A program made the position numbers and the translations under genes. Below, piece after piece: positions 16,499 through 40,999 of a stretch of DNA of 64,000 nucleotides. Origin of the DNA: Mustelus asterias (lineage: Eukaryota); contig NW_027590119.1 in assembly GCF_964213995.1 (NCBI RefSeq), positions 248,001 to 312,000 on the forward strand, written 5' to 3'. The notes under the pieces are model-generated. The model did not search any database. It was not told the origin of the DNA and saw only the letters and a list, made by a program, of their open reading frames with translations. Numbering within the stretch: position 1 is the stretch's first letter; the number at the start of each line of letters is the position of its first letter.

Positions 16499-19431
16499 CT
16501 AGACCAATCGTTTGAATCCCTCCATTCCCAGGCTGCTCTTGTGACTATCCAGGTAAGTCTTAAACGATGTCAGCGTGCCTGCCTCCACCACCCTACTTGG
16601 CAGCGCATTCCAGGCCCCCACCACCCTCTGTGTAAAAAACATCCCTCTAATATCTGAGTTATACTTCGCCCCTCTCACCTTGAGCCCGTGACCCCTCGTG
16701 ATCGTCACCTCCGACCTGGGAAAAAGCTTCCCACTGTTCACCCTATCTATCCCCTCCATAATCTTGTACACCTCTATTAGATCTCCCCTCATTCTCCGTC
16801 TTTCCAGGGAGAACAAGCCCAGTTTACCCAATCTCTCCTCATAGCTAAGACCCTCCATACCAGGCAACATCCTGGTAAACCTTCTCTGCACTCTCTCTAA
16901 CGCCTCCACGTCCTTCTGGTAGTGCGGCGACCAGAACTGGACGCAGTACTCCAAATGTGGCCGAACCAGCGTTCTATACAGCTGCATCATCAGACTCCAG
17001 CTTTTATACTCTATACTCCGTCCTATAAAGGCAAGCATACCATATGCCTTCTTCACCACCTTCTCCACCTGTGTTGCCACCTTCAAGGATTTGTGGACTT
17101 GCACACTTAGGTCCCTCTGTGTTTCTATACTCCTGATGACTCTGCCATTTATTGTATAACTCCTCCCTACATTATTTCTTCCAAAATGCATCACTTCGCA
17201 TTTATCCGGATTAAACTCCATCTGCCACCTCTCCGCCCAATTTTCCAGCCTATCTATATCTTGCTGTATTGCCCGACAATGCTCTTCGCTATCCGCAAGT
17301 CCAGCCATCTTCGTGTCATCCGCAAACTTGCTGATTACACCAGTTACACCTTCTTCCAAATCATTTATATATATCACAAATAGCAGAGGTCCCAGTACAG
17401 AGCCCTGCGGAACACCACTGGTCACAGACCTCCAGCCGGAAAAAGACCCTTCGACCACTACCCTCTGTCTCCTATGGCCAAGCCAGTTCTCCACCCATCT
17501 AGCCACTTCTCCTTGTATCCCATGAGCCTTAACCTTCTTAACCAACCTGCCATGTGGGACTTTGTCAAATGCCTTACTGAAATCCATATAGACGACATCC
17601 ACGGCCCTTCCTTCATCAACCGTTTTTGTCACTTCCTCAAAAAACTCCACCAAATTTGTACGGCACGACCTCCCTCTTACAAAACCATGCTGTCTGTCAC
17701 TAATGAGATTGTTCCATTCTAAATGCACATACATCCTGTCTCTAAGAATCCTCTCCAACAACTTCCCTACCACGGACGTCAAGCTCACCGGCCTATAATT
17801 TCCTGGGTTATCCCTGCTACCCTTCTTAAACAATGGGACCACATTCGCTATCCTCCAATCCTCAGGGACCTCACCCGTGTCCAAAGAAGCGACAAAGATT
17901 TCCGTCAGAGGCCCAGCAATTTCACCTCTCGTCTCCCTGAGCAGTCGAGGATAGATGCCATCAGGCCCTGGGGCTTTGTCAGTTTTAATGTTCCCTAAAA
18001 AACCTAACACTTCCTCTCTTGTAATGGAGATTTTCTCTAACGGGTCAACACCTCCCTCCGAGACACTCCCGGTTAACACGCCCCTCTCCTTCGTGAATAC
18101 CGATGCAAAGTATTCATTTAGGATCTCCCCTATTCCCTTGGGTTCTAAGCATAATTCCCCTCCTTTGTCCCTGAGAGGTCCAATTTTCTCCCTGACAACT
18201 CTTTTGTTCCTAACGTATGAATAGAATGCCTTAGGATTCTCCTTAATCCTGCCTGCCAAGAACATCTTGTGACCTCTTTTTGCCCTTCTAACTCCCCGTT
18301 TGAGATCTTTCCTACTCTCTCTGTATTCCTCCAGAGCTCCATCTGTTTTCAATTGCCTGGACTTAACGTACGCCTCCCTTTTCATTTTAATCAGATCCTC
18401 AATTTCCCTGGTTATCCACGGCTCTCGAATCCTACCTTTCCTATCTTTCCTTTTTACAGGCACATGCCTATCCTGCAGCCTTATCAATAGTTCCTTAAAA
18501 GACTCCCACATGCCAGACGCGGACTTACCCTCGAACATCCTCTCCCAATCAACATCCACCAATTCCTGCCTAATCCGGCTATAGTCAGCCTTCCCCCAAT
18601 TTAGCACCCTGCCCATAGGACAGCACTCATCCTTGTCCATGACTATCCTAAAGTTAACAGAGTTGTGGTCACTATTTGCCACATGTTCCCCTACCGAAAC
18701 TTTGACGACCTGACCGGGCTCATTTCCCAGAACTAGGTCCAGTATAGCCCCCTCTCTAGTCGGGCTATCTACATACTGTTCCAAAGAACCTTCCAGTACG
18801 CATTTTACAAATTCCTCCCCATCCGGTCCCCCAGCTCTCAGCACTTTCCAGTCTGTGCCAGGGAAATTAAAGTCCCCCACTACAACAACCCTATGTTTTC
18901 TGCACCTATCCAGAATCTCCTGACATATCCTCTCCTCCACTTCCCGTGGGCTGTTGGGTGGTCTGTAGTACACCCCCAGCATAGTGATGCACCCTTCCTG
19001 TTTCTGAGTTCCACCCACAGCGACTCAGTACATGACCCCTCTAAGTTGTCTACCCTCTGCACCGCGGTAATATGCTCCTTAACTAATATCGCTACTCCCC
19101 CACCTTTTTTAGCCCCTCCTCTGTCTCGCCTAAAACACTTATACCCCAGAATATTCAGCTGCCAGTCCTGTCCTTCTTTTAACCAAGTTTCCGTCACCGC
19201 AACCACATCCAAATTCCGCACAAGCATTAAGGCCCTAAGTTCGTCTGTTTTACCCGTTACACTCCTCGCATTGAAGCAGATGCACTCCAGACCTCCAGGC
19301 CCAGTCAGGTCCTCCTCCTCCAGAGTGCTCGTCTTCTTAGCTAGCCTTGCCCTGGCCCCCAGCTCGACCCCAGCCTCAGTATTTACTGACCTCCTGTTTT
19401 GTTCCCCACCCCCCTGCCACACTAGTTTAAA
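16499..19431 (-). pseudogene. CR1 ORF2 (APE endonuclease + RT) with one 1-nt frameshift at ~18989
   Basis: [32 protein letters not shown]; break between NRKGA and ITMLGVYYRPP. Confidence 0.92.
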
Positions 19432-20450
19432 TCCTGCCGAAACACTCTAGCAAAACTCCCAGCCAGGATATTTGCTCCCTTCCAGTTAAGGTGTAACCCA
19501 TCCTTTCTGTACAGTTGCCATCCTGACTTGAAGATTTCCCAGTTATCTATGAATTTAAAACCCTCCCTCTTGCACCAGTCCTTTAGCCACGCGTTCAACT
19601 GTAGAATCTCCCTGTTCCGAGCCTCACTTGCACTAGGCACCGGGAGCAGTCCAGATATTGCTACCCTGGAGGTCTTACTTTTTAGCCTAGCACCCAACTC
19701 CCTGAATTTCTCTCGTATGACCCCCCTGCTCTTCCTACCTACATCATTTCCCCCAATGTGTACAATCACATCCGTTTGACTACCTTCCTTTTTAAATATG
19801 CTTCCTACCCTCTCGGAGACATCCAGTACCCCGGCACCAGGGAGGCAGACTACCATCCTGGATTCTCGTTCAGTCCCACAGAAGCGCCTGTCCGTGCCTC
19901 TAACCATTGCGTCCCCCACAACTATCGCTCTCCTAAACCCCTTCTTTCCCTTCCGGACCCCTGAGCCTGTCTCCGTGGAGGCGATCTGGTCCTCGTGGCT
20001 TACCCCTGGAGGGTCATCCCCCTCCACAGAATCCAAAACAAGATACCTATTTTGGAGGGGGACAACCACAGGGGATCCCTCCACAGACTGCTCACTCCCT
20101 TCCCTTCTCCCATCTGTTGCCGATTCCTTTCTTTTATGGGAGACTGCCACTGGGGTACTTTCTGGCACATCACCCTTCTGACTATTACCCCTCCTAACTG
20201 TGACCCACGTGTCTTCCTTCCGAGACCCTGGTGTCACTACCTGACTATAACTTTTATCTATTACTCTCTCATTTTCCCTAACTAAACTGAGTTCATCGAG
20301 CCTCAGCTCCAGCTCCCTTACACGATCCTTCAGGAGATGCAGTTCCACACATGTGGCACAGATATGGACTTCCGGGAGGCAAGTAGTCTCCAGGAACTCC
20401 CACATCTCACACCGAATGCAGTATACTGGCCTCCCACTCATACCAGCCAT
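19422..20450 (-). CDS. CR1 ORF1p (CxxC-CxxC/leucine zipper + SGNH esterase-like domain)
   Basis: CIRC..CATC, LKDRVRELE zipper, GDAMVR, GGND and DGLHLN SGNH blocks; open frame. Confidence 0.92.
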   Translation of the reverse strand: MAGMSGRPVYCIRCEMWEFLETTCLPEVHICATCVELHLLKDRVRELELRLDELSLVRENERVIDKSYSQVVTPGSRKEDTWVTVRRGNSQKGDVPESTPVAVSHKRKESATDGRREGSEQSVEGSPVVVPLQNRYLVLDSVEGDDPPGVSHEDQIASTETGSGVRKGKKGFRRAIVVGDAMVRGTDRRFCGTERESRMVVCLPGAGVLDVSERVGSIFKKEGSQTDVIVHIGGNDVGRKSRGVIREKFRELGARLKSKTSRVAISGLLPVPSASEARNREILQLNAWLKDWCKREGFKFIDNWEIFKSGWQLYRKDGLHLNWKGANILAGSFARVFRQDLN

Positions 20451-21404
20451 GTCCTTTTTAGTTTTGTGGATAAAACAAAAAGGGGGTGTAACCGAAGAAA
20501 AACAAACAAACAACCTTCCTCGCTGAAGCCCTGTGAGCCAAAGCCCTTTTAGCTCTCACTCTGTCCCCTGCTCACTCCGCTGCCCGCTAACGACGCTGCC
20601 CGCTCAAAGGTGCGGCCTACTTTTAAACCCTCCAAAACCTTCCCAGGCTGCTGCTGGGCCTATTTCCTGTTTAGAAAAAAAACCTCCGATTTTTTTCACT
20701 AATTTAACTGAAAAAATAATTAAATAAATTAGTGCACACACAAGCTCCCTTACCCTCAGCCTGCTCCTGTGGAACAATGAGACAGTCATTCTGTCTCTCT
20801 CTCGGTTTAACTCTCTTTCCTTCGAACTCAATGTCGGTATATTTCTTTAGGTAGATCTTTCCCCGAATTAAGGTGAAAAATGAAGCAAATAATTTGACGC
20901 CTGTCGAATACACAAGTACTGAGTGCCCAGTGCAAGAGGATAATTAATAGATACCGTTTTAAGTACACCGGGAAAATGTAATCACCCAACTCAGAATTGA
21001 GATGCGGTTCGACTGGGAATACATTGATTTCAGTCAGTCAATATTATTAACCCAGCAACTTCAACATGTGACAACTCTGAGTCTGCCTTTGATATTTGAT
21101 CACTTTTGAAAGGTGTGGTCTGTCACAGTTAACTGATCTGGAGCATTTAAAATACAGATTGATGACCTTGTTCTCCTGAGAGATCTGCGGGTTTGTGTGA
21201 ATGGGATCGGGGAATGATTGGACTTGATCTGATAGTAATATGAGTAAAAATATCTCAAATTTACCAACAGTGACAATTATTGACCTCAGTGAGGGAAAAC
21301 ACTCAGGTGGGGCTGTATTGTCACGTTCACTATGGGTAACATTTCTCTGATTTTTGATCCCATGTGTTGTCCTGACAGTGAACCATTGATTATCGACCTG
21401 TGCC

Positions 21405-21443
21405 AGTTTTTGTATGAGGCCCGCGGGAGCCTCATTCACTGTG
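21405..21443 (-). promoter_or_regulatory. V(D)J recombination signal sequence, 23-bp spacer
   Basis: Minus strand CACAGTG (21443-21437) + 23 nt + ACAAAAACT (21413-21405) directly after the YYCALR codons. Confidence 0.93.
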
Positions 21444-21753
21444 GGTCTGAGTGCACAGTAATACACGGCGTTGTCTGCCATCTTCAAATCTTTCATGGAC
21501 AAGTGAAAAGTGCTTTGTTTAAGGTTGAGATTCTCATTGAAGTGTTCAAAGCCGGGAGCCGTATCGGTAAACCCATAACTAGCGGCTCTGAGCAGATACT
21601 GAGGAGCTCGGTGTGGATACTGGCGATACCAGAACAGGTAATGTTGTGTAGCTGAACTCGATGCAAAGTAACTGCAGGGTATTGCTGAATCTTCACCCTC
21701 TGCTGCTTCACAACTGGTTCTGACTGGGACACTGAGTCACCGTTACTCATCTC
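21444..21753 (-). pseudogene. T-cell receptor alpha/delta-type V segment exon (1-nt frameshift in FR1)
   Basis: Reconstructed GDSVSQSEPVV/AAEGEDSAIPCSYF...YLFWYRQYPHRAPQYLL...STFHLSMKDLKMADNAVYYCALR; frameshift ~21708. Confidence 0.9.
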
Positions 21754-24410
21754 ATGGCCCAAAAGTTAAAATTCTAAATTGGGGCAAGGCGAATTTTGAT
21801 GGTATCAGGCAGGAACTTTCAAAAGTTAATTGGAGGAGTCTGTGGGAAGGCAAAGGGACGTCTGGTAAGTGGCAAGCTTTCAAAAGTGTGTTAATCAGGG
21901 TTCAGGGTAAGCACAGTCCTCTTAGAGTGAAGAGCAAGGCTGGTAGACGGAGGGAACCCTGGATGACTCTGGATATTGAGGCCCTGGTCAAGAAGAAGAA
22001 AGGGGCACATGACATGCATAGGCACTGGGATCAAGTGAATCCCTTGAAGAGTATAGGGGGTACAGGAGTAGAGTTAAGAGAGAAATCAGGAGGGCAAAAA
22101 AGGGACACGAGATTGTTTTGGCAGATAAGGCAAAGGAGAATCCAAAGAGCTTCTAAAAATACATAAAAGGCAAAGGAGTAACAAGGGAGAGAGTAGAGCT
22201 TTTTAAGGATCAACAAGAACATCTATGTGCCGATCCACAGGGATGGGTGAGATCCTAAATGAGTATTTCTCATCAGTATTTACTGTTGAGAAAAGCATGG
22301 ATGTTAGTGAACTTGGGGAAATAAATAGTGATGTCTTGAGGAGTGTACATATTACAGAGAAAGAGATGCTGGAAGTCTTAAAGCGCATCAAGGTAGATAA
22401 ATCCCCGGGACCTGATGAGGTATATCCCAGGAAATTGCGGGTCCCCTAGCCGAGATATTTGAATCATCGATCGTCACGGGGTGAGGTGCCTGAAGATTGG
22501 AGAGTGGCAAATGTTGTGCCTTTGTTTAAGAAGGGCTTCAGGGAAAAGCCTGGGAACTACAGGCCGGCGAGCCTCACATTTGTGGTGGGTAAGTTGTTGG
22601 AAGGCATTTAGAGACGCAAGGACTGATTAGGAACATTCAGCATGGCTTTGATACCGGAGATGAGGGGTTTGGATTATGAGGAGAGGCTGAGGAGATTGGG
22701 TTTGTACTCGTTGGAGTTTAGAAGGATGAGGGGGGATCTTATGGAGACTTATAAGATAATGCGGGTGCTGGATAGGGTGGAGGCGGAGAGATTCTTTCCA
22801 CTTAGTAAGGAAGTTAAAACTAGAGGACACAGCCTCAAAATAAAGGGGGGTCGGTTTAAGACAGAGTTGAGGAGGAACTTCTTCTCCCAGAGGGTGGTGA
22901 ATCTCTGGAATTCTCTGCCCACTGAGGTGGTGGAGGTTACCTCGCTGAATATGTTTAAAGCGCGGATGGATGGATTCCTGATTGGTAAGGGAATTAAGGG
23001 TTATGGGGATCAGGCGGGTAAGTGGTACTGATCCACGTCAGATCAGCCATGATCTTATTGAATGGCGGGGCAGGCTCGAGGGGCTAGATGGCCTACTCCT
23101 GCTCCTATTTCTTATGTTCTTATGTTCTTTGTGAGTGGAAAATCATGTCTCACAAATTTGATTGAGTTTTTTGAAGGGGTCACCAAGATGGGGGCAGTGC
23201 AGTTGATGTTGTCTACATGGACTTTAGCAAGGCCTTTGACAAGGTACCGCATGGTAGGTTGTTGCATAAGGTTAAATCTCACGGGATCCAGGGTGAGGTA
23301 TCTAAATCGATACAAAAGTCGCTTCTTGACAGAAGCCAGAGTGTGGTTGTAGAGGGTTGTCTTTAAAACTGGAGGCCTGTGGCCAGCGGTATGCCTCAGG
23401 GATCAGTGCTGGGTCCACTGTTATTTGTCATGTATATTAATGATTTGGATGAGAATATAGGAGGCATGGTTCATAAGTTTGCAGATTACACCAAGATTGG
23501 TGGCATAGTGGACAGTGAAGAACGTTATCTCCGATTGCAACGGGATCTTGATCAATTGGACCAGTGAGCTGACGAATGGCAGATGGAGTTTAATTTAGAC
23601 AAATGCGAGGTGATGCATTTTGGTAGATTGAACCAGGGCAGGATTTACTCAGTCAATGGTAGGGCGTTGGGGAGAGTTACAGAACAAAGAGATCTAGGGG
23701 TACAGGTTGATAGCTCCTTGAAAGTGGAGTCACAGGTGGACAGAGTGGTGAAAAAGGCATCGGCATGCTTGGTTTCATTGGTCAGAACATTGAATACAGG
23801 AGTTGGGACATCTTGTTGAAGTTGGACAAGACATTGGTGAGGCCACACTTGGAATACTGTGTACAGTTCTGGTCACCCTATTGTAGAAAGGATATTATTA
23901 AACTGGAAAAGTGCAGAAAAGATTTACTAGGATGCTACCGGGACTTGATTGTTTGAGTTATAAGGAGAGGCTGGATAGACTGGGACTTTTTTCTCTGGAG
24001 CGTAGGACCCTGAGGGTGATCTTATAGAGGTCTATAAAATAATGAGGGGCACAGATCAGCTAGATAGTCAATATCTTTTCCCAAAGATAGGGAAGTCTAA
24101 AACCAGAGGACATAGATTTAGGGTGAGAGGGGAGAGATACAAAAGTTCCAGAGGGGCAATTTTTTCACACAGAGGGTGGTGAGTATCTGGAACAAGCTCC
24201 CAGAGGCTCGAGTAGTGGCGGGTACAATTTTGTCTTTTAAAAAGCATTTAGACAGTTACATGGGTACGATGGGTATAGAGGGATATGGGCCAAATGCGGG
24301 CAATTGGGATTAGTTTAGGGGTTCAAACAAAAAGGGCGGCATGGACAAGTTGGGCCGAAGGGCCAGTTTCTATGCTGTAATCCTCTGTGACTCTGTGACT
24401 CTATGACTCT
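21754..24410 (+). mobile_element. 5'-truncated CR1 LINE inserted into the 5' end of the V exon
   Basis: Starts GPKVKILNWGKANF, RT motifs, (CTCTATGA)n tail; ATCTC duplicated at 21749-21753 and 24411-24415. Confidence 0.93.
22651..23126 (+). mobile_element. Younger CR1 3' fragment nested in the previous LINE
   Basis: Splits host QHGF|VSGKSC codons; CTTTG duplicated at 22646-22650 and 23127-23131; (TTCTTATG)n tail. Confidence 0.9.
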
Positions 24411-24535
24411 ATCTCTGAAAATAAACAGCGGACACAAACCGGATTAGGAGTAACAACAACGGAATAATTGCCTCGAGATGGAAATGGGGAATTAATTTGG
24501 TGATTGCCGGATTTCACCCAAAGGTTCAAAATGAC

Positions 24536-24585
24536 CGAGCTGTGATCAGGACAATAACCAGAGTCAGACAGAATTTCACCCCCAT
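24536..24585 (-). pseudogene. Probable leader (signal peptide) exon of the V segment
   Basis: accATGg Kozak context, MGVKFCLTLVIVLITA hydrophobic peptide ~120 bp upstream of acceptor TTTTCAG (24415/6); donor site ambiguous. Confidence 0.65.
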
Positions 24586-24857
24586 GGTTCCAGTTAGAGC
24601 TTCAGAAACAGAGACAGTGATCACTGACTGTACCAGAACTGTAATTGGAGAAGTTGAAACAGTCAGTGGAATGGTATGAGGTCGAACGTGACTCCCTGTC
24701 TCCGCCCATTTTTACATCTTCAAACAAGCGCTTTCTCGAGAAGGAATGGTGATCTTGCATAAGTGATCAGAGAGCGCCCTCCCCTGGCAGCACTGCCGCA
24801 TATTGGAAACAGGTGCACACACGGCCACCTGCAAAGACTGACACATATTGAGATATT

Positions 24858-25075
24858 AGAATCATAGAATCCGTACGGTACAGAAGAATGCCATTCGGCC
24901 CAGCGGGTCTGTACCGGCCACAAGCGCACCCAGGCCCTATTCCCGTAACCCCATATATTTACCCCGCTAATCCCCCTGACACTAGGGTCAATTTAGCATG
25001 GCCAATCAAACTAACCTGCACATCTTTGGATCGTGGGAGGAAACCGGAGCACCTGAGGAAACCCAGCAGACACCG
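24858..25075 (-). mobile_element. tRNA-derived HE1/V-SINE-like element (5'-truncated)
   Basis: GGTTTCCTCCCAC..AAAGATGTGCAGGTTAG core and CR1-like 3' tail on minus strand. Confidence 0.75.
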
Positions 25076-25714
25076 GGAATGCAAATACACACACAGCCAT
25101 GTGCAAAGGCTAACACATGTAAGGATATATAACCATATAGATATATGTCTAGGCACCGATATCAATTCTAATGTCCCTCGCTATAAATACAGGATTATTC
25201 TGTAGATTTGTGACATATATTAGTCTCAGCTGTTAACCATGATCGTACATGAATAACGCCGCCTCCGTGTTCACTGGAAGCGATGTATACCACACAGAAT
25301 CAACAAAAGCATAGACACAGGGACAAGGAAACACAGTGATCGATTCTCAAACCGATCGAATCAAACATAGACATACAGACAATCACTGAGGAAGATAAAC
25401 AATCAGATTAACACAGCCATAGACACACTGAAGAGAAGTGCGCCCATTGACAATGCCAAAAACGTACTAGTTCCAGAGTAAACTTCCTGAACTGGAATTC
25501 CCTGGGGTCGTGTCAGTGCGGCAATATCCCGTTAGATATTCATCGCGATGAAACTGTCCATTTTAACAACAGGAACAGCCAGAAATGTATTTCTTATAAA
25601 CGGTGATCATTAATTGATGACTATAAGCAATTGACAACTATTGGAGAATAAGCAACAATGGATGGATTTATTTTTTACAGTGAAACATATTTTGGATGTG
25701 TCCGTGTCATGTTT

Positions 25715-26005
25715 AAAGTTTTTTATTAGTGTCACAAGTGGGATTACATTCATATTGCAATGAAGTTACTGTGAAAATCGCCTAGTCGCCACACTCCGCC
25801 ACCTATTCGGATACACTAAGGGAGAACTTTAGCATGGCGATGCACCGAACCAGTGCGTCTTTTGGACTGTGGGAGAAAACCAGAGCACACAGAGGAAACC
25901 CATGTACACACAGGAAGAACACGCAAACTGCACACAGACCCAAGCCAGGCATCGGACCCGGGTCCCTGGCGCTGTGAGGTAGCTCTGTGCCACTGTGCCG
26001 CCCCG
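25715..26005 (-). mobile_element. tRNA-derived HE1/V-SINE-like element
   Basis: Head GGGGCGGCACAGTGGCACAG...CCTCACAGCGCCAGGGACCCGGGTCCGA on minus strand. Confidence 0.8.
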
Positions 26006-26686
26006 TGTGAGGTCAGTGTAGGTAAGACTGATTCCCCACCCATTCTCAATGTTATCGGATCAAATGTTCGGGACACAGGAGGACAACACAAGGAGACTGC
26101 TTTGGGTGCAGGTGATTCATTCTCCTCTGTTCTATTCCACATTCTGTGGAAAGTTGTGAAGTTAATTAGTTATATTATATATAATTCAGAAATAATGAGG
26201 AGATGCTTCATCCGATTAAACTCGTTTTGTAAATTCAATATGAAATCAATTGCATAAATAAATATATGTTTACATTGAAAACTATGTCGGGAAGCTATAT
26301 CCAATACTTCATGCCATTGGATCAAGGAAACGTTGTTACTTAAAGCAAACTGTATGGACACGGATTCCACAGAAACTCTTTCTTCAAATGGGGATTGACT
26401 TGAAAGGGAGAAATGACTTGAAAGGGAGAAAAATCAGCTTCATGGAATGAGAGGAGGAAACTGAAATGAGAACAAAGGACAGTGCAGCACAGGAACAGGC
26501 CCTTCGGTCCACCAAGCCCACACCGATACATCAGTTGGGTAGCTCGTAATCAAATAATTGGCATAGGCATTGTGGGTCAAAGGGCCTCTTATTGTTGCCT
26601 GCCATTGTCAACCATTTTCAATCATTCTTGGATCAATATGTCTACAGCATTCACAATGAGTGTTGCAACATTTCAAGAGAGTCCCA

Positions 26687-26759
26687 TTGGGTGCTTGCAA
26701 GTGGTGATTGCATTCACCTCACACACGAAAGCTCCCCAGTTCAAAGCCATGCCGGAATG
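26687..26759 (+). pseudogene. Decayed tRNA-Val(CAC)
   Basis: GTGGTGATTGCATTCACCT-CAC-ACACGAAAGCTCCCCAGTTCAAAGCC aligns with tRNA-Val positions 15-65; acceptor stem lost; same position in the duplicated unit as the intact tRNA. Confidence 0.75.
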
Positions 26760-27054
26760 TTATTAGTATTTGTTCTTTAAGGATGAGGGAAGTTTACATG
26801 ATTTAAATTTGTTGCTGAACATTATCCGAAACTCGATATTAAAGCCATGTTATCTTTGCTCTGACCTCGGCCTCAAAATCTTTCAGCAAAATCTGAAATC
26901 TTGTATTTTTATGACGCAATGAAAGGAAATAGAGGTCCCTTTTTGACACCGTGTTCATATCAGCAACTCGTTCAGTCCACAACAGAATTTAATGGCTTTA
27001 TTAATGCAGACGAACAAAGTTAATCACCATCTGAAACATATCTAAAAGTATAAA

Positions 27055-27205
27055 TGATGTGGAGATGCCGGCGTTGGACTGGGGTAAACACAGTAAGGAA
27101 TCTAACAACACCAGGTTAAAGTCCAACAGGTTTATTTGGTAGCTAGTGGCGTTTGCTACCAAATAAACCTGTTGGACTTTAACCTGGTGTTGTTAGACTC
27201 CTAAC
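27055..27205. mobile_element. Penelope-derived hairpin mini-element (family A) with 8-bp TSD
   Basis: ~45-bp inverted repeat; AGTATAAA at 27047-27054 and 27206-27213; absent from the duplicate spacer copy. Confidence 0.8.
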
Positions 27206-27926
27206 AGTATAAAGACAGGCATACGTGAAACTGTAACTGAACTAGAGGAAATAGCGCACATTGCACAGAAGCATCTTTTTAACATCGTTGTTCAGAGTAA
27301 AGAATTAGGAAAAGCCACTCAGACAGATGAGGAAATCGAGAATCAGTGTGGATCTGCTGGGCTTCCTGCAGATGAACGAGATTTAGGCGCCAGAATGTTT
27401 CACTCACAGAGTAAAGAGGGATCAAGTATAACTAACAGATCATTCTTAAATCTCTTCCCTTTAAAGATATTTGATTTTGTTTAAAAGCTGACTGTCTCAA
27501 ATAAGCACCATGGGATGTGTATTACCCAGTGACTCGATTCTTTTGTTGGTCAGTCATGCTTGCATTTCAATGTTGTATATTTCAGAGATATTCAATTCAG
27601 AATGAGGAGATATGTAATTAATAAAAAGATATTAATATTAAACATTGAACAGCTAACAAGTACTGGGTGGAGCTGGTTAAAATTATTCGAAGGAAGATGA
27701 GAATGATGCATTAATGATTGAGCAGAAATCATTGCTCCTTAGATATTTGCTGGACGACCACTTTTAAATGTTGAAGTTCAAGATAAGTTGAGAAATCAAG
27801 TTGAAAGAAATGTTTTTTGTCTTGTATTAATTGACATGGGCTCTCAGTGTAATCATTAGAACCTGCAGCAACACAGTGGAGGTGAACATTGTGGTCAGGC
27901 CAATTGGTGGCGCTATGCTGTCAGTT

Positions 27927-27999
27927 GTTTCTGTAGTGTAGTGGTTATCACGTTCGCCTAACACGCGAAAGGTCCCCGGTTCAAAACCGGGCAGAAACA
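27927..27999 (+). tRNA. tRNA-Val(AAC)
   Basis: 73 nt, near-identical to vertebrate Val-AAC as recalled; acceptor stem GTTTCTG/CAGAAAC, anticodon loop CT-AAC-AC, A and B boxes present. Confidence 0.95.
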
Positions 28000-28749
28000 T
28001 TAATTTACTCATTTATTGTGAGGGTAGTTTTGCATGGTTTCAGTTTTTGCTGTACATATTCCGAATCTCGATGTTGCAGCCATATTATCTTTGCTCTAAA
28101 CTCGGCCACAAATGCTCTCAGCAAAATCAGAAATGCTGTAGTTTGAGACGCAATGAGGAAATAAATGTGTGTATTTGGACACCGTGCGCATATCAGCAAC
28201 TTGTTCAAACCACAACAGAACTTAATGGTTTTATAAATGCAGACTAACATAGTTAATCACCATCTGAAACATGTCAAATAGTATTTTGTGCTCATAAAGA
28301 CAAGTGAAACTGTAAATGAACTGGAGGAAATGGCAGACATTGCCCTGAAGCATCTTTTTAAAATTGTTCTTCATAATAAAGAAATAGGAAAAAGCACTCA
28401 GGCAGATGAAGAAATCGAGACTCAGTGGAGATCTGCTGGACTTTCCTACAGATGAACGGGATTTAAGCACCAGAATATTTCACACGCAGAATAAAGAGGG
28501 ATCAAGTATAAATAACAGATCATTCTTAAATCTCTTCCCTTTAAAGATATCTGATTTTGTTTAAATGCTGACTGTCTCAAATAAGCACCATGGGATGTGT
28601 ATTACCCTGTGACTCAATTTATTTTATTCTCAGTCATGTTTGCAATTCAATGTTGCATATTCCCGAGATATTCAATTCAGAATGAAGACGTATGTATTAA
28701 ATACATGTATTAATATTTAACATCGAATAACGAAACAAATATTGAGTAA

Positions 28750-29880
28750 CCAGCCAACGATTCAAGTCTGGATGACCCTTCATCAGAGCTAAGAGCAAAG
28801 AAAAGCAGAAAAGATTTAAATTATGAGGGTGGAAGGGGGGTGCTGTAATTGGACAAAGGGAATGCAAATAAGGATAAAGATGGCTGAGAGAGATGCTAAA
28901 AATGTCCATTAAGCGATCAGAATAGCAGAGCAGAGGTAAAGGTGGTTAAGGCAGTTGCCCTGAAAGAGGAGTGGAGGAGTGGGGGGGGGGGGGGCGGGGG
29001 GGGGGGGCGGTGGTGGGGGGTGGGGGAGAGGCAAGAAGGAGAGCAGGAATGAAGAAATGGAAAAATGGAAATGAGAAAGAAGTATGATAAAAATGGGTAA
29101 ATGAGATGAAAAGAAGAAACAGTATGAAATAAAATAAATGGAAAGGGGATAAAGGTGGCGGGGAGAGTTCATGCTCTGAAGTTGTTGAACTCAATGTTTA
29201 TTCCAGAAGGCTGTAAAGTGTCCAATTGGAAGATGAGGTACTGTTCCTCCAGTTTGCGTTGGGGTTCACTCAAACATTGCAAAAGGCCAAGGACGGACAT
29301 GTGGACAGGAGAGCAGGGTGCTGTGTTGAAGCGGCAAGAACTGGAAGTTCTGGGTCCTGCTTGCAGACGGACTGAAGGGTTCAGCAAAGCGATCACCCAG
29401 TTTGTGTTTGGTCTCTCCAATGTAGGAGAGTAGACTTCATGGGGAGGAGCGAATGCAATAGACTAGACTGAAGGAGATGCATGTGAATCGCTGCTTCACC
29501 TGAAAGGGGTGTTTAGGACCTGGGATGGTGAGCAGGGAGGAGGTAAAGGGGCAGGTGTTGCACCTTCTACCATTGCATGGGAAGATGCTGTGGGCATGGG
29601 ATGGGATGTTGGGTGGGATGGAGGTGTGGACCAGGGTGTCCCAGAGAGAACCTACCTTGTGGAATGCTGATGGGTGTGAGGGGTGAGGTGAAGATGTGTT
29701 GAGGAATGGCTTCATGCTGGAGTTGGCAGCAATGGCGGAGGATGATACTTTGAACATGGAGGCTGGTCTGGTAAAAAGTGAGGACAAGGGGAGCCCTGTC
29801 CTCTTTCTGGGAGGGAGTCCGAGCAGTGGCCTGGAAGATGAGTTGGACACAGTCAAGAGCCCTGTCAACCACAGTGGGTG
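28750..29880 (-). mobile_element. Penelope-like retroelement fragment (GIY-YIG endonuclease + 3' region with decayed hammerhead)
   Basis: FPCNGRRCNTC, FTCISFSLVYCIR, YIGETKHKLGDRF, LEEQYLIFQLDTLQPSGINIEF; minus strand CTGATGA-GGGTC..GACTT-GAATCGTT at ~28755-28790. Confidence 0.88.
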
Positions 29881-30289
29881 GACTTCACACAGTCACCCAA
29901 AGCAAGAATCGAACCCAAGTCCCAAGCACTGTAATGTAAGGCAGCAATGCTAACCACTGTTCCACCCGAAGGATCAGCCTGGTGGTAGCTTTACTCATGA
30001 TATCCAGTTGCACTGGAGGTAGAATTGGAAGGAAATAAAAGTAAAATACTGCGGATGTTGGAATTGGGAAATTTAAACTGAAAATACTGGATAAACTCAG
30101 CAGACCTGGCGGCATCTGTGGAGAAACCTATTAACAATGGATTCTTATGATTTTGGTTGCTGAATGAGGAGACAAGGTCCTTTCGGTTTTATTGACGTTT
30201 TATGCGGCGTTACGGTTGAAGCGATAAAAGCAATATTTCAAATATCTCTGATATTAAGTGATGTCCATCTTTGTGTGGGGCAGACGTCC

Positions 30290-30506
30290 TACGTTTGGAC
30301 GGAAGATGAAGAACCAATGTGCCCTTAACAAAGATGGCGCCGATGTGGGGGGCGGGGCAATGGGCGGTGTACGCAGAACGCTGAGGAGGTTGGGATCGCA
30401 CATGCGCATTGCAGCGGGTGTGGTTTGTTGACGGAAGCGCGCGGGTTCTTCTCCAGATCGGAATCAGATTTGAAAGGGGGAACGGTTAACGGTGGCAGGC
30501 GTTGCC
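30290..30506 (+). promoter_or_regulatory. CpG-island housekeeping-type promoter of the EMC4 fragment
   Basis: YY1 AAGATGGCG 30331, GC boxes, NRF1-like GCACATGCGCA ~30398, ETS CGGAAG ~30431. Confidence 0.7.
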
Positions 30507-30589
30507 ATGGCGGCAGGGGCGGGGCTCGCCAACAGCGCGCGCTGGCTCAAGTGGACCCTCGAGCGCAACCTGAGCGACAGCAGCAGCAG
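30507..30589 (+). CDS. EMC4: EMC4 exon 1 (partial gene)
   Basis: MAAGAGLANSARWLKWTLE resembles EMC4 N-terminus as recalled (ANRGRRFKWAIE); gccATGg; phase-2 donor GTGCGG. Confidence 0.8.
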
Positions 30590-31229
30590 GTGCGGAGGCC
30601 GCGCGGGGAGCCGGGGGCTCGAGTAGGAGGCAAGCCGGGTCAGCCCGCCTCTCCCGCGAAGGCGACCTGGGGATGTGACACCAACTCAAAACTTCCCAAC
30701 CCCGGGTTTTTCACGTCTCTTTTACCCCTCACCGAGCTCCTCAGCACAAAGCAGCCCCTCAAATCCTCCAGAAACCACTCAGACCCCACTTGGCATCTTT
30801 TCCCCAGGTCATGACCCTGAGATGCCATCTTGGTTTCAGCCCCTCCACCTGAACAGGTGCCAACTGCGGTGGTGGTTGGAGGAACGATTGCTCGTTTCCA
30901 GGGCCGGGTGCTGAACTGGATCTCTCTCAATGTCCCGCAATGTTTGTTTTCAAGATACAATTTGGTACATCTGGTGATTTGTCGCTTTGTCCCGAAATGG
31001 AGGGCAAGCGGATTGGCACCCTGATTATCAATTCACACTAAATCTACTTCTACATCCCTCCATTCCCCTGGCAGTTTGGTACACGCAATGGCAGTGTGTG
31101 TCTGAGGTTTGCCCAAGCTTTAGTTTGTGCTGGCACTATTGCCACCACGTTGGGGTCCGCAAAAGAGAGACTCCCTTTTTAAAGAAGGTCTTGAAAGAGT
31201 GACCAACTTGTGTTTTCTGTTTCTCATAG

Positions 31230-31341
31230 GAGCCGTGATCAACAGTGTGGCCAGAGAGACTCCATGTGCCCAGTCGCATATTCGGACAAACAGCTACCGG
31301 ACATCTGCGTCCAAGAAACAGACCGGATCCTGGTCGAGAAA
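31230..31341 (+). CDS. EMC4: EMC4 exon 2
   Basis: [30 protein letters not shown]; AG acceptor, GTAAGT donor. Confidence 0.92.
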
Positions 31342-31522
31342 GTAAGTTAGATTTGAATGTGTCTGGTTTGTTCACGGTGGTGAAGTACCTTGGTGAACCA
31401 CAGCACCCTGTGCGATAAAGGGTTAATCATCATCCTAACTTCCAGGCCTGGGTATAAGATCAGCATATGGCCTCCCGTAACCGGCCCCCTTTACTGATAC
31501 CCTGCTCGCTTTCTGTTTTCAG

Positions 31523-31677
31523 TCCTGCTGGGACATCGCCTTGGGCCCATTGAAACAGCTGCCCAAGATGTCCCAACATCATGTACATGGCTGGCAACAA
31601 CATCTCCATCCTCCCTATCATGATGGTGTGCATGATGGCCTGGAGACCTATACAGGCCTTGATGTCCATGTCTGCAA
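31523..31677 (+). pseudogene. EMC4: EMC4 exon 3 with +1 frameshift; later EMC4 exons not found in the window
   Basis: [13 protein letters not shown] then 13 nt where 4 codons are expected, then [33 protein letters not shown] in the shifted frame; GTGAGT donor. Confidence 0.88.
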
Positions 31678-32071
31678 GTGAGTATTGTATTGAATCTACA
31701 GCTCAGAAACAGCTCTGAAGCGGCATCACTTGAGTGCAGCTTAGAATAGAGTTCTGGGAGTTGGGTAATTAAGGGAGTTAGGGAAGGAAGGGAAAGAGGT
31801 GCCCTTTTGCTTTCTAACTTTCTCAGCCTTTAGGAAGTGATCTTACTCTTCTACAGGAGAAGAAGCCAGATTTTTGGTGAGTATCTGCGAAGTAACTAAG
31901 ATTTATTCTGTTCCTAAGGATCACAATAGTATAGCAACAGGTGGTAAAGTTAATAAAATACTTAAAAACAAAAATAAATTATCATTGGATAAAAGAAATA
32001 GTTTATTAGTACACATTCAAGCTGCAGCATTTGGGAGTTCCTGGGTGTCAGTTTGATCCAGGGCAAACAGG

Positions 32072-35000
32072 CATAGAGGTTTACAGCATGGAAACAGACC
32101 CTTCGGCCCAACTTGTCCATGCCATCCTTTTTTTAAAACCCCTGAGCTAGTCCCAATTGTCCGCATTTCGCCCATATCCCTCTCTACCCATTTTACCCAT
32201 GTAACTGTCTAAATGCTTTTTAAAATACAAAACTGTACCCCCTCTACTACTACCTCTGGCAGCTTGTTCCAGACACTCACCACCCTCTGTGTGAAACAAT
32301 TGCCCCTTTGGACATTTTTCTATCTTCCCGTCTCACCTTAAACCTATGCCCCCTAGTTTTAGACTCCCCGACCTTTGGGAAAAGATATTGACTATCTAGC
32401 TGATCTATGCCCCTCATTATTTTATAGGCCTCTATAACATCACCCTCAGCCTCCTCAGCCCAAGAGAAAAAAGTCCCAGTCTATCCAGCCTCTCCTTCTA
32501 ACTCAAACCATCAAGTCCGGTAGCATCCTAGTAAATCTCTTCTGCACTCTTTCTAGTTTAATAATATCCTTTCTATAATAGGGTGACCAGAACTGTACAT
32601 AGTATTCCAAGTGTGGCCTTACCAATGTCTTGTACAACTTCAACAAGATGTCCCAACTCCTGTATTCAATGTTCTGACCAATGAAACCAAGCATGCCGAA
32701 TGCCTTCTTCACCACTCTGTCCACCTGTGACTCCACTTTCAAGGAGCTATGAACATGTACCCTTAGATCTCTCTGTTCTGTAACTCTCCCCAACACATAC
32801 CATTAACTGAGTAAGTCATACATCGAACATAGAACAGGCCCTTCGGCCCACGATGTTGTGCTGAGCTTTATCTGAAACCAAGATCAAGCTATCCCACTCC
32901 CTATCATCCTGGTGTGCTCCATGTGCCAATCCAATAACCGCTTAAATGTTCCTAAAGTGTCTGACTCCACTATCACTGCAGGCAGTCCATTCCACACCCC
33001 AACCACTCTCTGCGTAAAGAACCTACCTCTGATATCCTTCCTATATCTCCCACCATGACCCCTATAGTTGTGCCCCCTTGTCATACCTCCATCCACCCGA
33101 GGAAATAGTCTTTGAACGTTCACTCTATCTATCCCCTTCATCATTTTATAAACCTCTATTAAGTCTCCCCCCAACCTCCTCCGGTCCAGAGAGAACAGCC
33201 CTAGCTCCCTCAACCTTTCCTCATAAGACGTACCCTCCAAACCAGGCAGCATCCTGGTAAATCTCCTTTGCACTCTTTCCAGCGCTTCCACATCCTTCTT
33301 ATTGTGAGGTGACCAGAACTGCACACAATATTCCAAATGTGGTCTCACCAAGGTCCTGTACAGTTGCAGCATAACCCCACGGCTCTTAAACTCCAACCCC
33401 CTGTTAATAAAAGCTAACACACTATTGGCCTTCTTCACAGCTCTATCCATTTGAGTGGCAACCTTCAGAGATCTGTGGATATGGACCCCAAGATCTCTCT
33501 GTTCCTCCACAGTCTTCAGAACCCTACCTTTGACCATGTAATCCACACTTAAATTTGTCCTACCAAAATGAAAAACCTCACATTTATCAGGGTTAAACTC
33601 CATCTGCCATTTTTCAGCCCAGCTTTGCATCCTATCTATGTCTCTTTACAGTCTATAACAGCCCTCCACCTCATCCACTACTCCACCAATCTTGGTGTCA
33701 TCAGCAAATTTACTGATCCACCCTTCAGCCCCCTCCTCTCGGTCATTAATAAAAATCACAAATAGCAGAGGACCAAGCACTGATCCCTGTGGCACTCCGC
33801 TAGCAACCTGCCTCCAATCCGAAAATTTTCCATTCACCACCACCCTCTGTCTTCGATCAGACAGCCAGTTACCTATCCAATCAGCCAACTTTCCCTCTAT
33901 CCCAACCTCCTTACTTTCATCATAAGCTGACCATGGGGGACCTTATCAAACGCCTTACTAAAATCCATGTTTCTGACATCAACTGCCCTACCTTCGTCAA
34001 CACACTTAGTTACCTCCTCAAAAAATTCAATCAAATTTGTGAGGCACGACTTGCCCTTCACGAATCCGTGCTGACTATCCCGGATTAATCCGCATCTTTC
34101 TAAATGGTCGTAAATCCCATCCCTAAGGACCTTTTCCATCAACTTACCAACCACCGAAGTAAGACTAACCGGCCTATCATTACCAGGGTCATTTCTATTC
34201 CCTTTCTTAAAGAGAGGTACAACACTCGCCACTCTCCAGTCCTCTGGCACCATCCCCGTGGACAGTGAGGACCCAAAGATCAAAGCCAAAGGCTCTGCAA
34301 TCTCATCCCTTGCCTCCCAAAGAATCCTAGGATATATTTCATCAGGCCCAGGAGACTTATCGACCTTCAGTTTATTCAAAACTGCTAGTACATCCTCCCG
34401 CTGAACATCTACTTCCTCCAGCCTATTCGCCTGTAACACCTTCTCTTCCTCAAAAACATGACCCCTCTCCTTGGTGAACACTGAAGAAAAGTATTCATTC
34501 ATCACCTCTCCTATCTCTACTGACTCCATACACAAGTTCCCACTACTGTCCTTGACCGGCCCTAACCTCACCCTGGTCATTTGTTTATTCCTCACATAAG
34601 AGTAAAAAGCCTTGGGGTTTTCCTTGATCCGACCCGCCAAGGACTTCTCTCCCCTCCTAGCTCTCCTAAGCCCCTTTTTCAGCTCATTCCTTGCTAACTT
34701 GTAACCCTCAATCGAGCCATCTGAACCTTGTTTCCTCATAAGCTTCCCACCTCTTTTGTGAACCATGGTTCCCTCACTCGGCCATTTCCTCCCTGCCTGA
34801 CAGGGACATACCTATCAAGGACACACAGTATTTGTTCCTTGAAAAAATTCCACTTTTCATTAGTGCCTTTCCCTGACAGTTTCTGTTCCCATCTTATGCC
34901 CCCTAATTCTTGCCTAATCGCATCATAATTACCTCTTCCCCCAATTATAAACCTTGCCCTGCCGTACGGCCCTATCCTTCTCCATTGCAATAACAAAAGA

Positions 35001-35245
35001 CATCGAATTGTGGTCACTATCTCCAAAGTGCTCTCCCACAACCAAATCTAACACTTGGCCCGGTTCATTTCCCAGTACCAAATCTACTGTGGCCCCACCT
35101 CTTGTCGGCCTATCCACATATTGTGTCAGGAAACCCTCCTGCACACACTGCACAAAAACTGCCCCATCCAAACTGTTCGACCTACAAAGGTACCAATCAA
35201 TATTTGGAAAGTTAAAGTCCCCCATGACAACTACCCTGTGCCCCC
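32072..35245 (-). mobile_element. Two adjacent CR1 LINEs (32072-32815 and 32820-35245)
   Basis: [34 protein letters not shown] motifs; two separate 3' tails. Confidence 0.93.
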
Positions 35246-35364
35246 ACAGATATCCATAATCTGCTTAGCAATTCCTTCCTCCACCTGGTTTCAGCAGCAG
35301 GTGAGCTGAGGCCAGGACAAAGTGGGGCGATGTCACTGAGGTGGAAATAGGTAGTGTAGGTGGT

Positions 35365-36163
35365 GATGTGGCAAATAGAGTTAAATACAGATCAGTGTGA
35401 GGTGTTGCATCATGGGAAGTCAAACCAAGGTAGAACTTTCACAGTGAATGGTAGGACCTCAGGGAGTATCGTGGAACAGAGGGACCTTGGAGTCCAGGTG
35501 CACGGTTCTCTTAAGGTGGAGTCACGTGTAGATAGGGCAGTGAAGAAGGCTTTTGACATGCTGGCCTTTATCAGTCAGGGCATTGAGTATAGGAGTTGGG
35601 AAGTTATGTTGCAGTTGTACAGGACTTTGGTGAGGCTGCACCTGGAATATTGTGTTCAGTTTTGGTCACCTTGATTTGGAAAGATGTTATTCAACTGGAG
35701 AGAGTGCAGAAGAGATTTACAAGGATGTTGCCAGTACTCAAGTTATAGGGAGAGATTGGATGAGTTAGGACTTTTTTCTTTGGAGCGTAGGAGACTGAGG
35801 GGTGATCTTATAGAGATGTGTAAGATCATGAGAGGCATGGATAGGTTGAATGCACTCAGTCTTTTTCCCAGGGTTGGGGAATTAAGAATTAGAGGGCATA
35901 AGTTTAAGTTAAGAGGGGAAAGAATTAATGGGAACCTGAGGAGCAGCTTTTTTACACAGAGGGTGGTACGTATGTGGAATGAGCTGCCGGAGGGAGTGGT
36001 TGAGACAGGGACATTGTCAACATTTAAAAGGCATTTGGACAGATACATGGATAGGAAAGGTTCAGAGGGATATGGGCCAAATGGAGTTAGCTCACATGGG
36101 CATTTTTGGTGGGCATTGTCCAGTTTGGGCCGAAGGGCCTGTCTCCGTGCTGTAGATTCTATG
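35365..36163 (+). mobile_element. CR1 LINE 3' fragment
   Basis: CEVLH, RDLGVQV, LEYCVQFWSP, FFTQRVV motifs. Confidence 0.9.
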
Positions 36164-36766
36164 AGGATATGTTTAGAAGCTCAGTTTGAAGTGAAACATG
36201 TCACTGAGGTTGTGAATACTCCGGTTCAGCCTCAGACAGTCGCAATGGGGACAGATGGAGTCAGTGGTTCGGAAGTGGAATTTGTTGCAGGGCTGAAGAT
36301 GACAGCCTTCATCTTCCAATATTTAACAAAGGCAATTACTGCTCATCCAGTCCTGGATGTCAGACAAGGGAGGATGGTGTGTAAAATTGGAGGGAATTTG
36401 GAGATGATGGTGTTCACATACACCTCTTACCCTGATCCTTCTCGGTGGGCAGGTTAACGGTTTTAAGGTTCAAACCACTGGTTGAGTTGTAAGATACATA
36501 AAGTCCCTCCTTTGCCCCCATCTCTCTCTCCATCCATTGAGGCCTGAGCCTTGTGTAGTCCCAGACTGGATGGCAGATTCCCTTCCCTGAAAGGCATTAG
36601 TGAACCAGTTGAGGTTTTATGACAATCCAGCAGTTTCCATGGTAACTTTTTCCTGGTGCCGGCCCCACAAATGACCAGATTCATTCGGCTCAATTTCACA
36701 ACCTGCCTTTGTGTTTTTGTGGGATCTCTCTCACTCCCTTTTCGCTGTTTTAAATCAATTTCACAG

Positions 36767-38072
36767 GGTTTTAGAAGGGGATGATTTGCAGTCAGGAAAC
36801 TCAAACCAAACATCAAATCCAGATCTGACTGAGTCGCCCAACTTATCGTTACCTGAATACCACTGAACCTTGAGCATGGAAGGAAAAAGCACCATTCACA
36901 ATGGGGCAAAACTGTACACGTGTTCTGTGTGTGGACAAGGATTCAGACAATCATCTGGCCTGTCAAGACACAAGTGCAGTCACACTGAGGAGAAACCGTG
37001 GAAATGTGGGGAAGGATTCAGAGACCTGTCTGAGCTGGAAATTCACCAATACAGTAACACTGGGGAGAGGCTGTTCACCTGCTCTGAGTGTGGGAGAGGA
37101 TTCACTCAGTCATCCACCCTGCTGACACACCAGCGAGTTCACACTGGAGAGAGGCCATTTATCTGCTCCGAGTGTGGAAAGGGATTCACTCAATCATCTA
37201 ACCTGCTGACACACCAGCGGGTTCACACTGGAGAGAGGCCATTCACCTGCTCTGAATGTGGGATGCGATTCACTCAGTCATTCAACCTGCTGAGACACCA
37301 GCGGATTCACAAGGGAGAGAGGCCATTCACCTGCTCCGAGTGTGGGAAGGGATTCACTCAGTCATCTACACTGCAGACACACCAGCGAGTTCACACAGAG
37401 GAAAGACCATTTAAATGTCCAGAATGTGGCAAGTGCTATAAAAGTTTAAAGGAAGTGATGTTCCATCAACGTGTTCACACTGAGGAGAGACCATTTAAAT
37501 GCCCAGACTGCGAGAAGTGTTATAGAGGTTCCAGAGAACTAATGTTCCATCAACGTGTTCACACTGATGAGAGACCGTTCAGGTGCTCTCACTGCGGGAC
37601 TGGGTTCAGGTGGTCATCTCAACTCACTGAACACCAGTGAATTCACACTGGGGAGCGGCCGTTCACTTGCACTGACTGTGGGAAGGGATTCACTCGGACA
37701 TCACACCTCATGGCACATCAGCAAGTTCACACCGATGAGAGACCGTTTAAATGTCCAGACTGCGGGAAGTGCTGTAAAAGTTCCAGCAATCTAGTGTCCC
37801 ATCAACGTGTTCACAGTGAGGAGAGACCTTTTAAATGTCCAGACTGCGGGAAATGCTATAAAAGCTGCAGTGATCTGATGTCTCATCAACGTGGTCACAC
37901 TGATGAGAGACCGTTCAAGTGCACTCACTGCGGGACTGGGTTCAGGCGACCATCCCAACTCACTGTCCACCAGCGAATTCACACTGGGGAGAGGCCGTTC
38001 ACCTGCTCCAAATGTGGAAAGGGATTCACTCAGAAATACAACCTGTTGAGCCATCAGCGAGTTGACAAGTGA
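36767..38072 (+). pseudogene. C2H2 zinc-finger exon with two in-frame TGA stops (36864, 37638); residual ORF from ATG 36876
   Basis: Acceptor TTTCACAG|G at 36766/7; ORFs 36870-37640 and 37710-38072 share one frame; ~13 fingers. Confidence 0.85.
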
Positions 38073-38737
38073 CTGCTGGAGTTTGATTCTGCTGTTTATC
38101 ACAAATCACAAACATGTTGATTGTGGTCATTCGCCTCTGATGTAAATAAATTTGAGCCCACAAATAAATACGAATGTCCTGGATGAAAGTCAAATCAATC
38201 TGCTTTTATGTTAAACAAACAATCTGTTGAAACTTTTTATTATCTCTGACTCAAGTCCATTCCTTTCGAATGGCTCTCCCTCTCCCCTGTCTCCTCCATC
38301 CTGACCCCCAACAAAAAGTGTGATGAAGTCATGGAGCTTCTTTGTTACTAGGATTGAGCCAACCCATTCAGCTGTCCCTGCTGCTTCCCTCTCTTTCACC
38401 CTCCCACTGAGCCAAACTAATGTATCTAAAGCCTCTCCCTGTCTGAGCCTTGAACCTGCATCTTTCAACAGTTTCTTTCCTGTCTTGGCCCTGACTCTAT
38501 TTTCATTAAATTACTGACCATCCAACTTCCCCATATTGGCTGATATTGTTAATGATTCTCTCCCTCTCTTCTGGTTTTGTTCCTCTCACTTTTAAATACA
38601 CAAACATCACCCTTTATGAAAAAAACCCTTTGATCCCACTTTGCTTGCAAATTATGGCCCCATCTCCAGTCTCCCTTTCCTCTCCAAAGTCTTTGAACTT
38701 GGTGTCTCCCAAGGATATATACTTTTGGTCTCCTATT

Positions 38738-39155
38738 TGGGCAGCAAGGTGGCATGGTGGATCGCACTGCTGCCTCACAGATCCAGGCACCTGAGTTCAA
38801 TTTCAGTCTCTGTGGAGTTTGCACATTCTTTCTGAGTTTGTGTGGATTTCCTCCGTGTGCTCCGGTTTCTTCCACACTCCAAAGATGTGCAGGCTAGGTG
38901 GAATGGCCATGCTAAATGTATGGGATTACGGGTATAGGGTGGGGAGAGGGACAGCAGATTTCCTTCCCCAGAGGACATTAGTGAGCAATCAGCAATTGGC
39001 CGTGCTAAAATTGCCCCTTAGTGTCCTGGGATGTGTAGATTAGAGGGATTAGTGGGTAAAATATGTAGGGATATAGGGCCTGGGTGGGATTGTGGTCGGT
39101 GCAGACTCGATGGGCCGAATGGCCTCTTTCTGTACTGTAGGGTTTCTATGGTTTC
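38738..39155 (+). mobile_element. HE1/V-SINE-like elements (two partial copies)
   Basis: GCACTGCTGCCTCACAG head, CTCCGGTTTCTTCCACACTCCAAAGATGTGC core, GGGCCGAATGGCC tail. Confidence 0.8.
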
Positions 39156-40371
39156 ATGGTCAGAGCATTGCCCTGGGTCTCTGGATTACTGCGCTAGTGA
39201 CAATATCACTATGCCACTGCCTCCTCAATGTACACACATAGGAAAAGGCCATTCACCTGCTCCGTGTGGGAAAGAATTTATGCATCCAATTTGAAGGGCT
39301 GTGATCACAATAACCTCAGACCTCCGGACTATTTTGTTTGTGGTGGATATTTAGTAAGGACACTACCTACAACTGTTGTGGAGAATCAAAGACACAGCTC
39401 CAGTCTGATAAAGACCTTGTTCATTTAACGACCTGATCACATAAACCCCAGTGTAATCTAACAGGTCTTTCACAGGTCTATTGGACACGACCTCTCACCT
39501 GACAAGTACATGGGATTCTTTCATATTGAAACATCCCAGATAAGTGATAACTATGAAGATTCAGAATATGAATGCCTTTTTGTAATTCCAACATTCATCC
39601 ACTCTTGACCATAAGACATAGGAGCAGAATTAGGCCACTTGGCCCATCGAGTCTGCTCTGCCATTCAATCATGGCTGATATTTTCCTCATCCCCAGTCTC
39701 CTGCCTTTTCCCCATAACCCCTGATCCCCTTATTAATCAAGAACCTATCTATCTCTGTGGAAGCCACTCAATGACCTGGCCTCCACAGCCTTCTGTGGCG
39801 AAGAGTTCCAACAGATTCACCACTCTCTGGCTGAAGAAATTCCTCCTAATCTCTGTTTTAAAGGATCGTCCCTTTAGTCTGAGGTTGTGCCCTGGAGTAT
39901 TCTGGTTAACACACTGGAATACTCCCTTGGCCCTTCAGGATAATGTCACTGCAGTATATGGGATCTGCAGAAACATTCAATTAAATTCTACCAGCCACCT
40001 GGTATGCTTAACTGTGGAAACCCTTTTCCATTGAGGTCTCAGATTACTACAGCAGATATGCATTGTTCTGACTCGACCAGCCGGGCTGTGGAATTAGTTG
40101 GATAGATCTTCCAGAGAGCCAGCAGAGACAAAATGGGCCAAATGGTTTCTATTTATGCTGTATCATTCTCTAAAAGGGTGAGTATTCAGTATCAGTGACA
40201 GAGAGAAGAACCAGTGACTGTGCGATTGAACCCAGCCAGAATCAGCACCATAAAGGGAGGAGTGAGGGGGAAACGGTATAAAAGCTTTGAAACCATTGCA
40301 TGGTCCTGCAGCAGAACTTTGAGAACTAGAGCACAGCATATCATCAATTCTCAATATTTCAGTCATTTACC

Positions 40372-40938: not shown

Positions 40939-40999
40939 AAATGCTAACAATGCTATTTTGAATTAACTGTATGAAGTTTCAATGGCGTTTATTGCCCAG

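Follow-up and report, generated by a model that had tools for sequence, protein, structure and literature searches.

A LINE-cut TCR alpha/delta V pseudogene on a duplicated zinc-finger block of Mustelus asterias, and candidate dispersed TCR-delta cassettes in the same genome

In the elasmobranch antigen receptor complex, as set out in PMC12227049, TCR alpha/delta V exons are spread over megabases in either orientation, at a distance from J and C, between IgH clusters and mixed with NAR-TCR and IgH-like V. In great white shark they are listed together with pseudogenes over ~9 Mb (table S1), and the presence of an inverted V behind the delta C exon is mentioned as an old feature. PMC12227049 and PMC6795676 term shark TCR loci translocons and treat clusters as an Ig trait; in the gene-model table of the former, stingray and catshark have a single delta-constant row apiece, and no row of the other two species bears that label. 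Its main text and two supplements do not mention zinc-finger clusters. Since scattered shark TCR alpha/delta V exons are already in print there, the V segment that we describe is in itself ordinary; the difference from the translocon of PMC12227049 lies in the 19 C-delta and 2 C-alpha genes of the M. asterias genome.

Cluster-type loci are described for shark IgH, in the form of miniclusters (PMC6795676, in part), and for opossum TCR-mu, with eight clusters of which six are complete (PMC2275272, in part). The delta units reported below resemble both in being repeated units that each have a J and C of their own and, in those inspected, an upstream V, and in that some members look germline-joined, but they have up to five J segments and three types of V (NAR-TCR, IgH-like and alpha/delta) and are dispersed rather than tandem. 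The opossum orphon TRMV-OR2, in the same portion of PMC2275272, is like our segment a solitary non-functional V with its RSS retained, ~95% identical to its relatives and flanked by LINE sequence; it is however a single copy on another chromosome and lacks a leader, whereas the V studied here keeps its leader and has at least six sisters on a block of V and zinc-finger (ZNF) sequence. Additional alpha or delta constant genes are described for newts, carp and alligator in the available part of PMC12698447, where the duplications comprise two copies and are called uncommon, as opposed to 19 delta and two alpha genes here. The copy number of C-delta is not addressed in the available portions of PMC5931798 and PMC3964593, and within the literature searched, which covers the primary shark TCR-delta papers only partly, many C-delta genes in a shark are unreported.

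The window, the whole stretch of 64,000 nucleotides that was analysed, corresponds to C87:248,001-312,000 of G000, a 3.68-Gb genome in which C87 is a 2.96-Mb contig. On its minus strand lies a V segment with the leader-intron-exon layout of intact paralogs, though broken. The leader exon (24540..24585, 46 nt) is open and matches the leaders of uninterrupted paralogs. It is followed by a phase-1 intron (24415..24539, 125 nt), delimited by paralog comparison, whose acceptor TTTTCAG, ending at 24415, is intact and whose donor is changed from GT to CT at 24539: the window copy reads ACAG/CT, uninterrupted relatives CAG/GT after the 46-nt leader. The TCR alpha/delta-type V exon (21444..21752, 309 nt), recognised by its V-set domain (Pfam V-set, E=7.8e-12) and by paralog comparison, contains Cys, WYRQ and YYC and ends without a G strand. 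A 1-nt deletion near 21710 shifts its frame after codon 14 and splits MSNGDSVSQSEPVV from the cysteine-bearing frame. The earlier note had predicted this order of leader, intron and V exon followed by heptamer/23/nonamer, and it was correct in doing so. It had also proposed that a LINE with an ATCTC duplication cuts the V and that taking out the LINE restores the leader, intron and V exon; the insertion and its duplication stand, but LINE removal does not yield a working gene, because the CT donor and the 1-nt frameshift persist. A functional V gene has an open frame and working splice sites, and here we find a LINE in the exon, a CT donor and a 1-nt deletion. The window segment is a triply broken TCR alpha/delta V pseudogene, with LINE insertion, dead splice donor and frameshift.

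The inserted LINE (21754..24410, plus strand), which we take to be CR1-like, is 5'-truncated, ends in a short tandem 3' tail and lies antisense to the V gene, 4 nt inside the V exon. It is flanked by a proximal (21749..21753) and a distal (24411..24415) copy of the target-site duplication ATCTC, both given on the plus strand, and shows 45-63% identity by tblastn to the endonuclease-RT ORF2 of a neighbouring LINE, in which Pfam RVT_1 and endonuclease domains were identified. A younger LINE 3' fragment of 481 nt (22646..23126, plus strand; 99% to a copy elsewhere on C182) is nested within it and is missing from the sister copies. Both have empty sites in public DNA runs, the LINE with a skip of 2662 and the nested fragment with a skip of 481, each with 5 shared letters. 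A near full-length LINE with an ORF1 esterase and an ORF2 endonuclease-RT (16499..20780, minus strand) sits where similarity to the V array stops.

The V exon is followed by a 23-RSS (21405..21443, minus strand; heptamer CACAGTG, 23-nt near-palindromic spacer, ACAAAAACT), identified by pattern match and by paralogs and described in the earlier note as near-consensus; this is borne out by a single mismatch. The spacer (window 21414-21436) is a near-palindrome retained in much of the V family, with weak evidence for hairpin folding (z=-1.97, 8/200 shuffles equally good). A near-length homolog search gave no match. Protein identities of the exon outside its own genome reach at best ~35-49%, which leaves room for a non-rearranging V-set gene with an RSS by chance. 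That reading is contradicted by the position of the RSS, which begins immediately behind the YYC-ALRP codons and is alone among the eight matches in the window in having a single mismatch (shuffled sequence gave a mean of 0.94 matches allowing up to 3 mismatches), and by the presence of TCR alpha chains, among many antibody constructs, as named relatives. In addition, the window V is 93% identical to intact leader-V-RSS genes of multi-family V arrays, and its RSS is identical to those of the intact paralogs L003, L004, L009 and L016. These paralog arrays already refute the non-rearranging gene, and we regard its probability as negligible. A phylogeny, which the earlier note had suggested as a check, placed the window V inside a clade of 34 rows (96/86) of alpha/delta-type V, apart from NAR V, VH and the supporting V of P0042, a basking shark gene model that served as tblastn query and tree source; outgroups were long-branched and the comparison held no named shark TRAV/TRDV set. 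The alpha/delta assignment made in the earlier note is upheld by the V-set domain, the tree placement and the copies in V arrays.

At least seven copies span the LINE-V junction among the best 40 scored of 895 candidate DNA matches, and in a tree of 45 family members, made without rows under 280 aligned nt, the seven form one clade (99/95) that recurs in every bootstrap tree (100%). The CT donor is common to all seven, where uninterrupted relatives have GT. Six carry a further frameshift or stop, with stops in five copies and an identical 1-nt deletion in the window and C124 copies; the seventh, whose exon alone is open, is missing 7 nt of its RSS. The five distinct LINE-cut exons have a pooled pN/pS of 1.2, against 0.35 in 13 uninterrupted ones, ratios that are based on few changes and non-independent pairs, and by this measure the LINE-cut V exon is evidently decaying neutrally.

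The V pseudogene shares its surroundings with these sisters. A duplicated block of ~22 kb (20783..42523), comprising the V pseudogene and a C2H2 zinc-finger exon (36867..38072, plus strand), is ~88-96% identical to three other places, two of them on C182 and the third on C110, and the ZNF exon is present in these three sisters; the block is shorter and partly present on C124, C147 and C356. Downstream, three more decayed V segments are found in the C124 copy and in one C182 copy and two in the other C182 copy, all absent from the window copy. Some of the seven may be alleles, since the V exons of C110, C147 and C356 are identical and C147 and C356 are 99.7% alike over 16 kb. The earlier note had offered movement by segmental duplication as one origin of the segment, and the LINE-junction copies, the single clade and the shared block all speak for it. 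We infer one insertion, followed by repeated segmental duplication and neutral decay. In the order that we propose, the LINE would have inserted into a V at the margin of a V array, and this V would also have lost its splice donor; the block would then have been copied several times, each copy acquiring its own stops, deletions or new LINEs, and the neighbouring V segments downstream would have disappeared from the window copy. Entire TCR-delta J-C cassettes were likely multiplied by this duplication-prone region as well. The window V is thus very probably a dead pseudogene that came into the zinc-finger cluster as a passenger on a duplicated V+ZNF block of ~22 kb, one of at least seven copies.

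An alternative is that this V is dead yet still recombining, as part of a dispersed working TCR alpha/delta field in which RAG would link its RSS with a D or J far away; the outcome would be joints that are non-productive, or else extensive deletions and inversions across the ZNF cluster. The identity of the RSS with that of intact paralogs and the retained leader and upstream region agree with this, as do the scattering of shark V segments over megabases (PMC12227049, in part) and the 19 possible delta partners in the genome. Across the seven LINE-cut copies, the RSS shows 1 event per 39 nt where the flanks average 4.2, and RSS and spacer have zero substitutions in six of the seven; this is suggestive but not significant, 5 of 43 flanking windows being equally low, so that special conservation of the RSS relative to its flanks is not supported across these copies. 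The idea in the earlier note that the RSS remains a RAG target is accordingly possible but unsupported, the more so as the RSS is broken in one of seven sisters and no product can be made from the segment. That the window RSS is still present is likely due solely to the young age of the copies.

In C87:1-462,000, where many ZNF exons are found, scans with a V profile, a J motif, RSS patterns and tblastn of P0042 revealed no further V, J or C; the same scans recovered J segments at all 19 delta cassettes and at the alpha constant genes examined. Between the window RSS and the contig end 269 kb away there is no V, J or C, and none lies within 190 kb on the other side, while genome searches for C-delta and C-alpha gave no match over the 2.96 Mb of C87. 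A potential partner is therefore absent over these distances, although the genome continues beyond the start of C87 and a J-C cassette at a distance of over 269 kb is conceivable. Taken with the 7 nt lost from the RSS of one sister, this makes a still-recombining V improbable, and we keep to a passenger pseudogene. Two statements of the earlier note are addressed by these scans: the lack of further V, J or C segments in 64 kb is confirmed and now extends to C87:1-462,000, and the flanking scan it had proposed found nothing that would make the window the edge of a TCR locus, a reading left without support at this scale.

An orphon is a V outside the main locus that is unable to join J and C. 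The window V has no J or C in its neighbourhood over C87:1-462,000 and no C on its contig, and its description in the earlier note as isolated is right locally. Genome-wide it is not, as the best 150 scored of 1609 V family candidates are all matches (150/150), on ~60 contigs, some being halves of one gene. Further decayed members lie on C87 itself at 628 kb and 2.2 Mb, matches on C71 span 4.5 to 19.4 Mb, and dense multi-family V arrays with intact members are present on C178, C232 and C1506. ZNF fragments were also observed within dense V arrays (C1506:32-33 kb, C232:365 kb). With V segments and delta cassettes spread over many megabases among ZNF genes, the choice between orphon and locus edge becomes blurred.

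A C-delta query matched 40 of 47 candidates, which represent C-domain exons and transmembrane exons, 19 of each, plus two weaker transmembrane exons of alpha type. The resulting 19 TCR-delta constant genes (L071-L078, L119-L135) are located on C436, C119, C96, C115, C123, C138, C181, C106, C71 (at 7.14, 11.04 and 12.27 Mb), C850, C401, C90, C154, C3311, C110, C173 and C111. C-domain and transmembrane exons were read: all 19 C-delta exons have AG/GT ends and are stop-free, as are the transmembrane exons. They comprise 14 distinct sequences that differ by at most 32/312 nt, with a pN/pS of 0.76 over 13 of them. Each of the 19 cassettes has at least two FGxG J segments upstream, with five as maximum. 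D segments with both 12- and 23-RSS were seen in six cassettes and with the 12-RSS only in two; in eight, none was seen or the stretch read was too short. V is present upstream in all eight cassettes read far enough, of NAR-TCR, IgH-like or alpha/delta type and some broken. In three cassettes the supporting V ends directly in a D-type 23-RSS (C436:213,414-213,766; C119:553,367-553,719; C401:630-911, with a stop in C401), which likely would represent germline V-D joins. An inverted member of the window's V family lies 30-38 kb downstream of C-delta in 12 of 19 cassettes, many with a stop. At C181:336,580-336,740 (L208), three stacked 23-RSS copies, 61 nt apart, follow a supporting V.

C-alpha is represented by two exons only (2/44 candidates), one on C71 at 18.42 Mb and the other on C546, with 73% similarity between them; the J-alpha/C-alpha loci (L095-L098) span C71:18,410,000-18,432,000 and C546:234,000-242,100. 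No C-delta match was found within 6 Mb of the C71 C-alpha nor on C546. A Pfam PF09291 search for C-alpha gave no match, its controls being silent too, and C-alpha was found by another route. A genome-wide pattern of 12-RSS plus FGxG yielded 0 matches; the J segments found later have non-consensus nonamers, so this pattern was too strict.

Such numbers could arise if the seven V blocks and 19 cassettes were mostly unmerged haplotypes or assembly errors, which would leave one pseudogene near an ordinary single locus. Several cassette pairs are indeed at least 99.5% alike over 5.5 kb (C71 at 12.27 Mb and C850, 99.84%; C106 and C123, 99.82%), and short contigs carry most copies. Against this, the 14 distinct C-delta exons set a firm floor of seven loci in a diploid, and three of the genes lie on one contig, C71. 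Identical exons with different J sets (C115 versus C123; C3311 versus C110) argue for more than seven. The LINE-cut blocks, too, diverge by 4-8% and have private insertions. We therefore consider haplotypes or assembly errors a very unlikely explanation, and a multicassette TCR-delta organisation is well supported at the DNA level.

The C-delta exon was also found in public runs. One run, possibly non-independent, gave several contigs with 0-3 differences and summed depths of 91-564, which are not copy numbers; the run of a more distant organism gave several variant contigs, and that of a third organism one unbranched 584-nt contig. A C-delta-type region is also present in four NCBI gene models (8 member sequences, from one shark species), which were not counted as independent support. 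We lean, by a little, towards a TCR-delta that would be an antibody-like multicluster system, with many dispersed (V)-D-J-C-delta cassettes among ZNF genes, several of which would rearrange and be expressed, and with only two J-C-alpha loci beside them, the window V being debris of the same duplication process. The V pseudogene alone matters little, as a dated case in which ZNF duplications have carried antigen-receptor segments along. A set of 19 delta cassettes separate from the two alpha loci would, if true, be a TCR counterpart of shark Ig miniclusters, and it would raise the questions how allelic exclusion operates with many delta loci, whether V use stays confined to one cassette, and whether delta outlasts alpha rearrangement when not nested in the alpha locus.

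Some further observations concern the V family and the window. The leader ATG is absent in a large subfamily, which has an in-frame ATG four codons later (11 read: L010, L012, L013, L015, L017, L018, L020, L022, L024, L026 and L030); its V exons look conserved (pN/pS 0.35) and it possibly uses a short leader. In L014, L027 and L028 (C173, C159 and C88) leader and intron are replaced, with a boundary almost the same as that of the LINE, by sequence that has a weak U2 snRNA match (E=0.012), which in L014 stays below the Rfam gathering score. The LINE of the C124 copy contains, in inverted orientation, the 3' terminal part of a different V, 23-RSS included (C124:134,626-134,660, L044). Finally, two adjoining tandem repeat arrays at window 13,030-14,358, by a ZNF gene start, give rise to long repetitive open frames.
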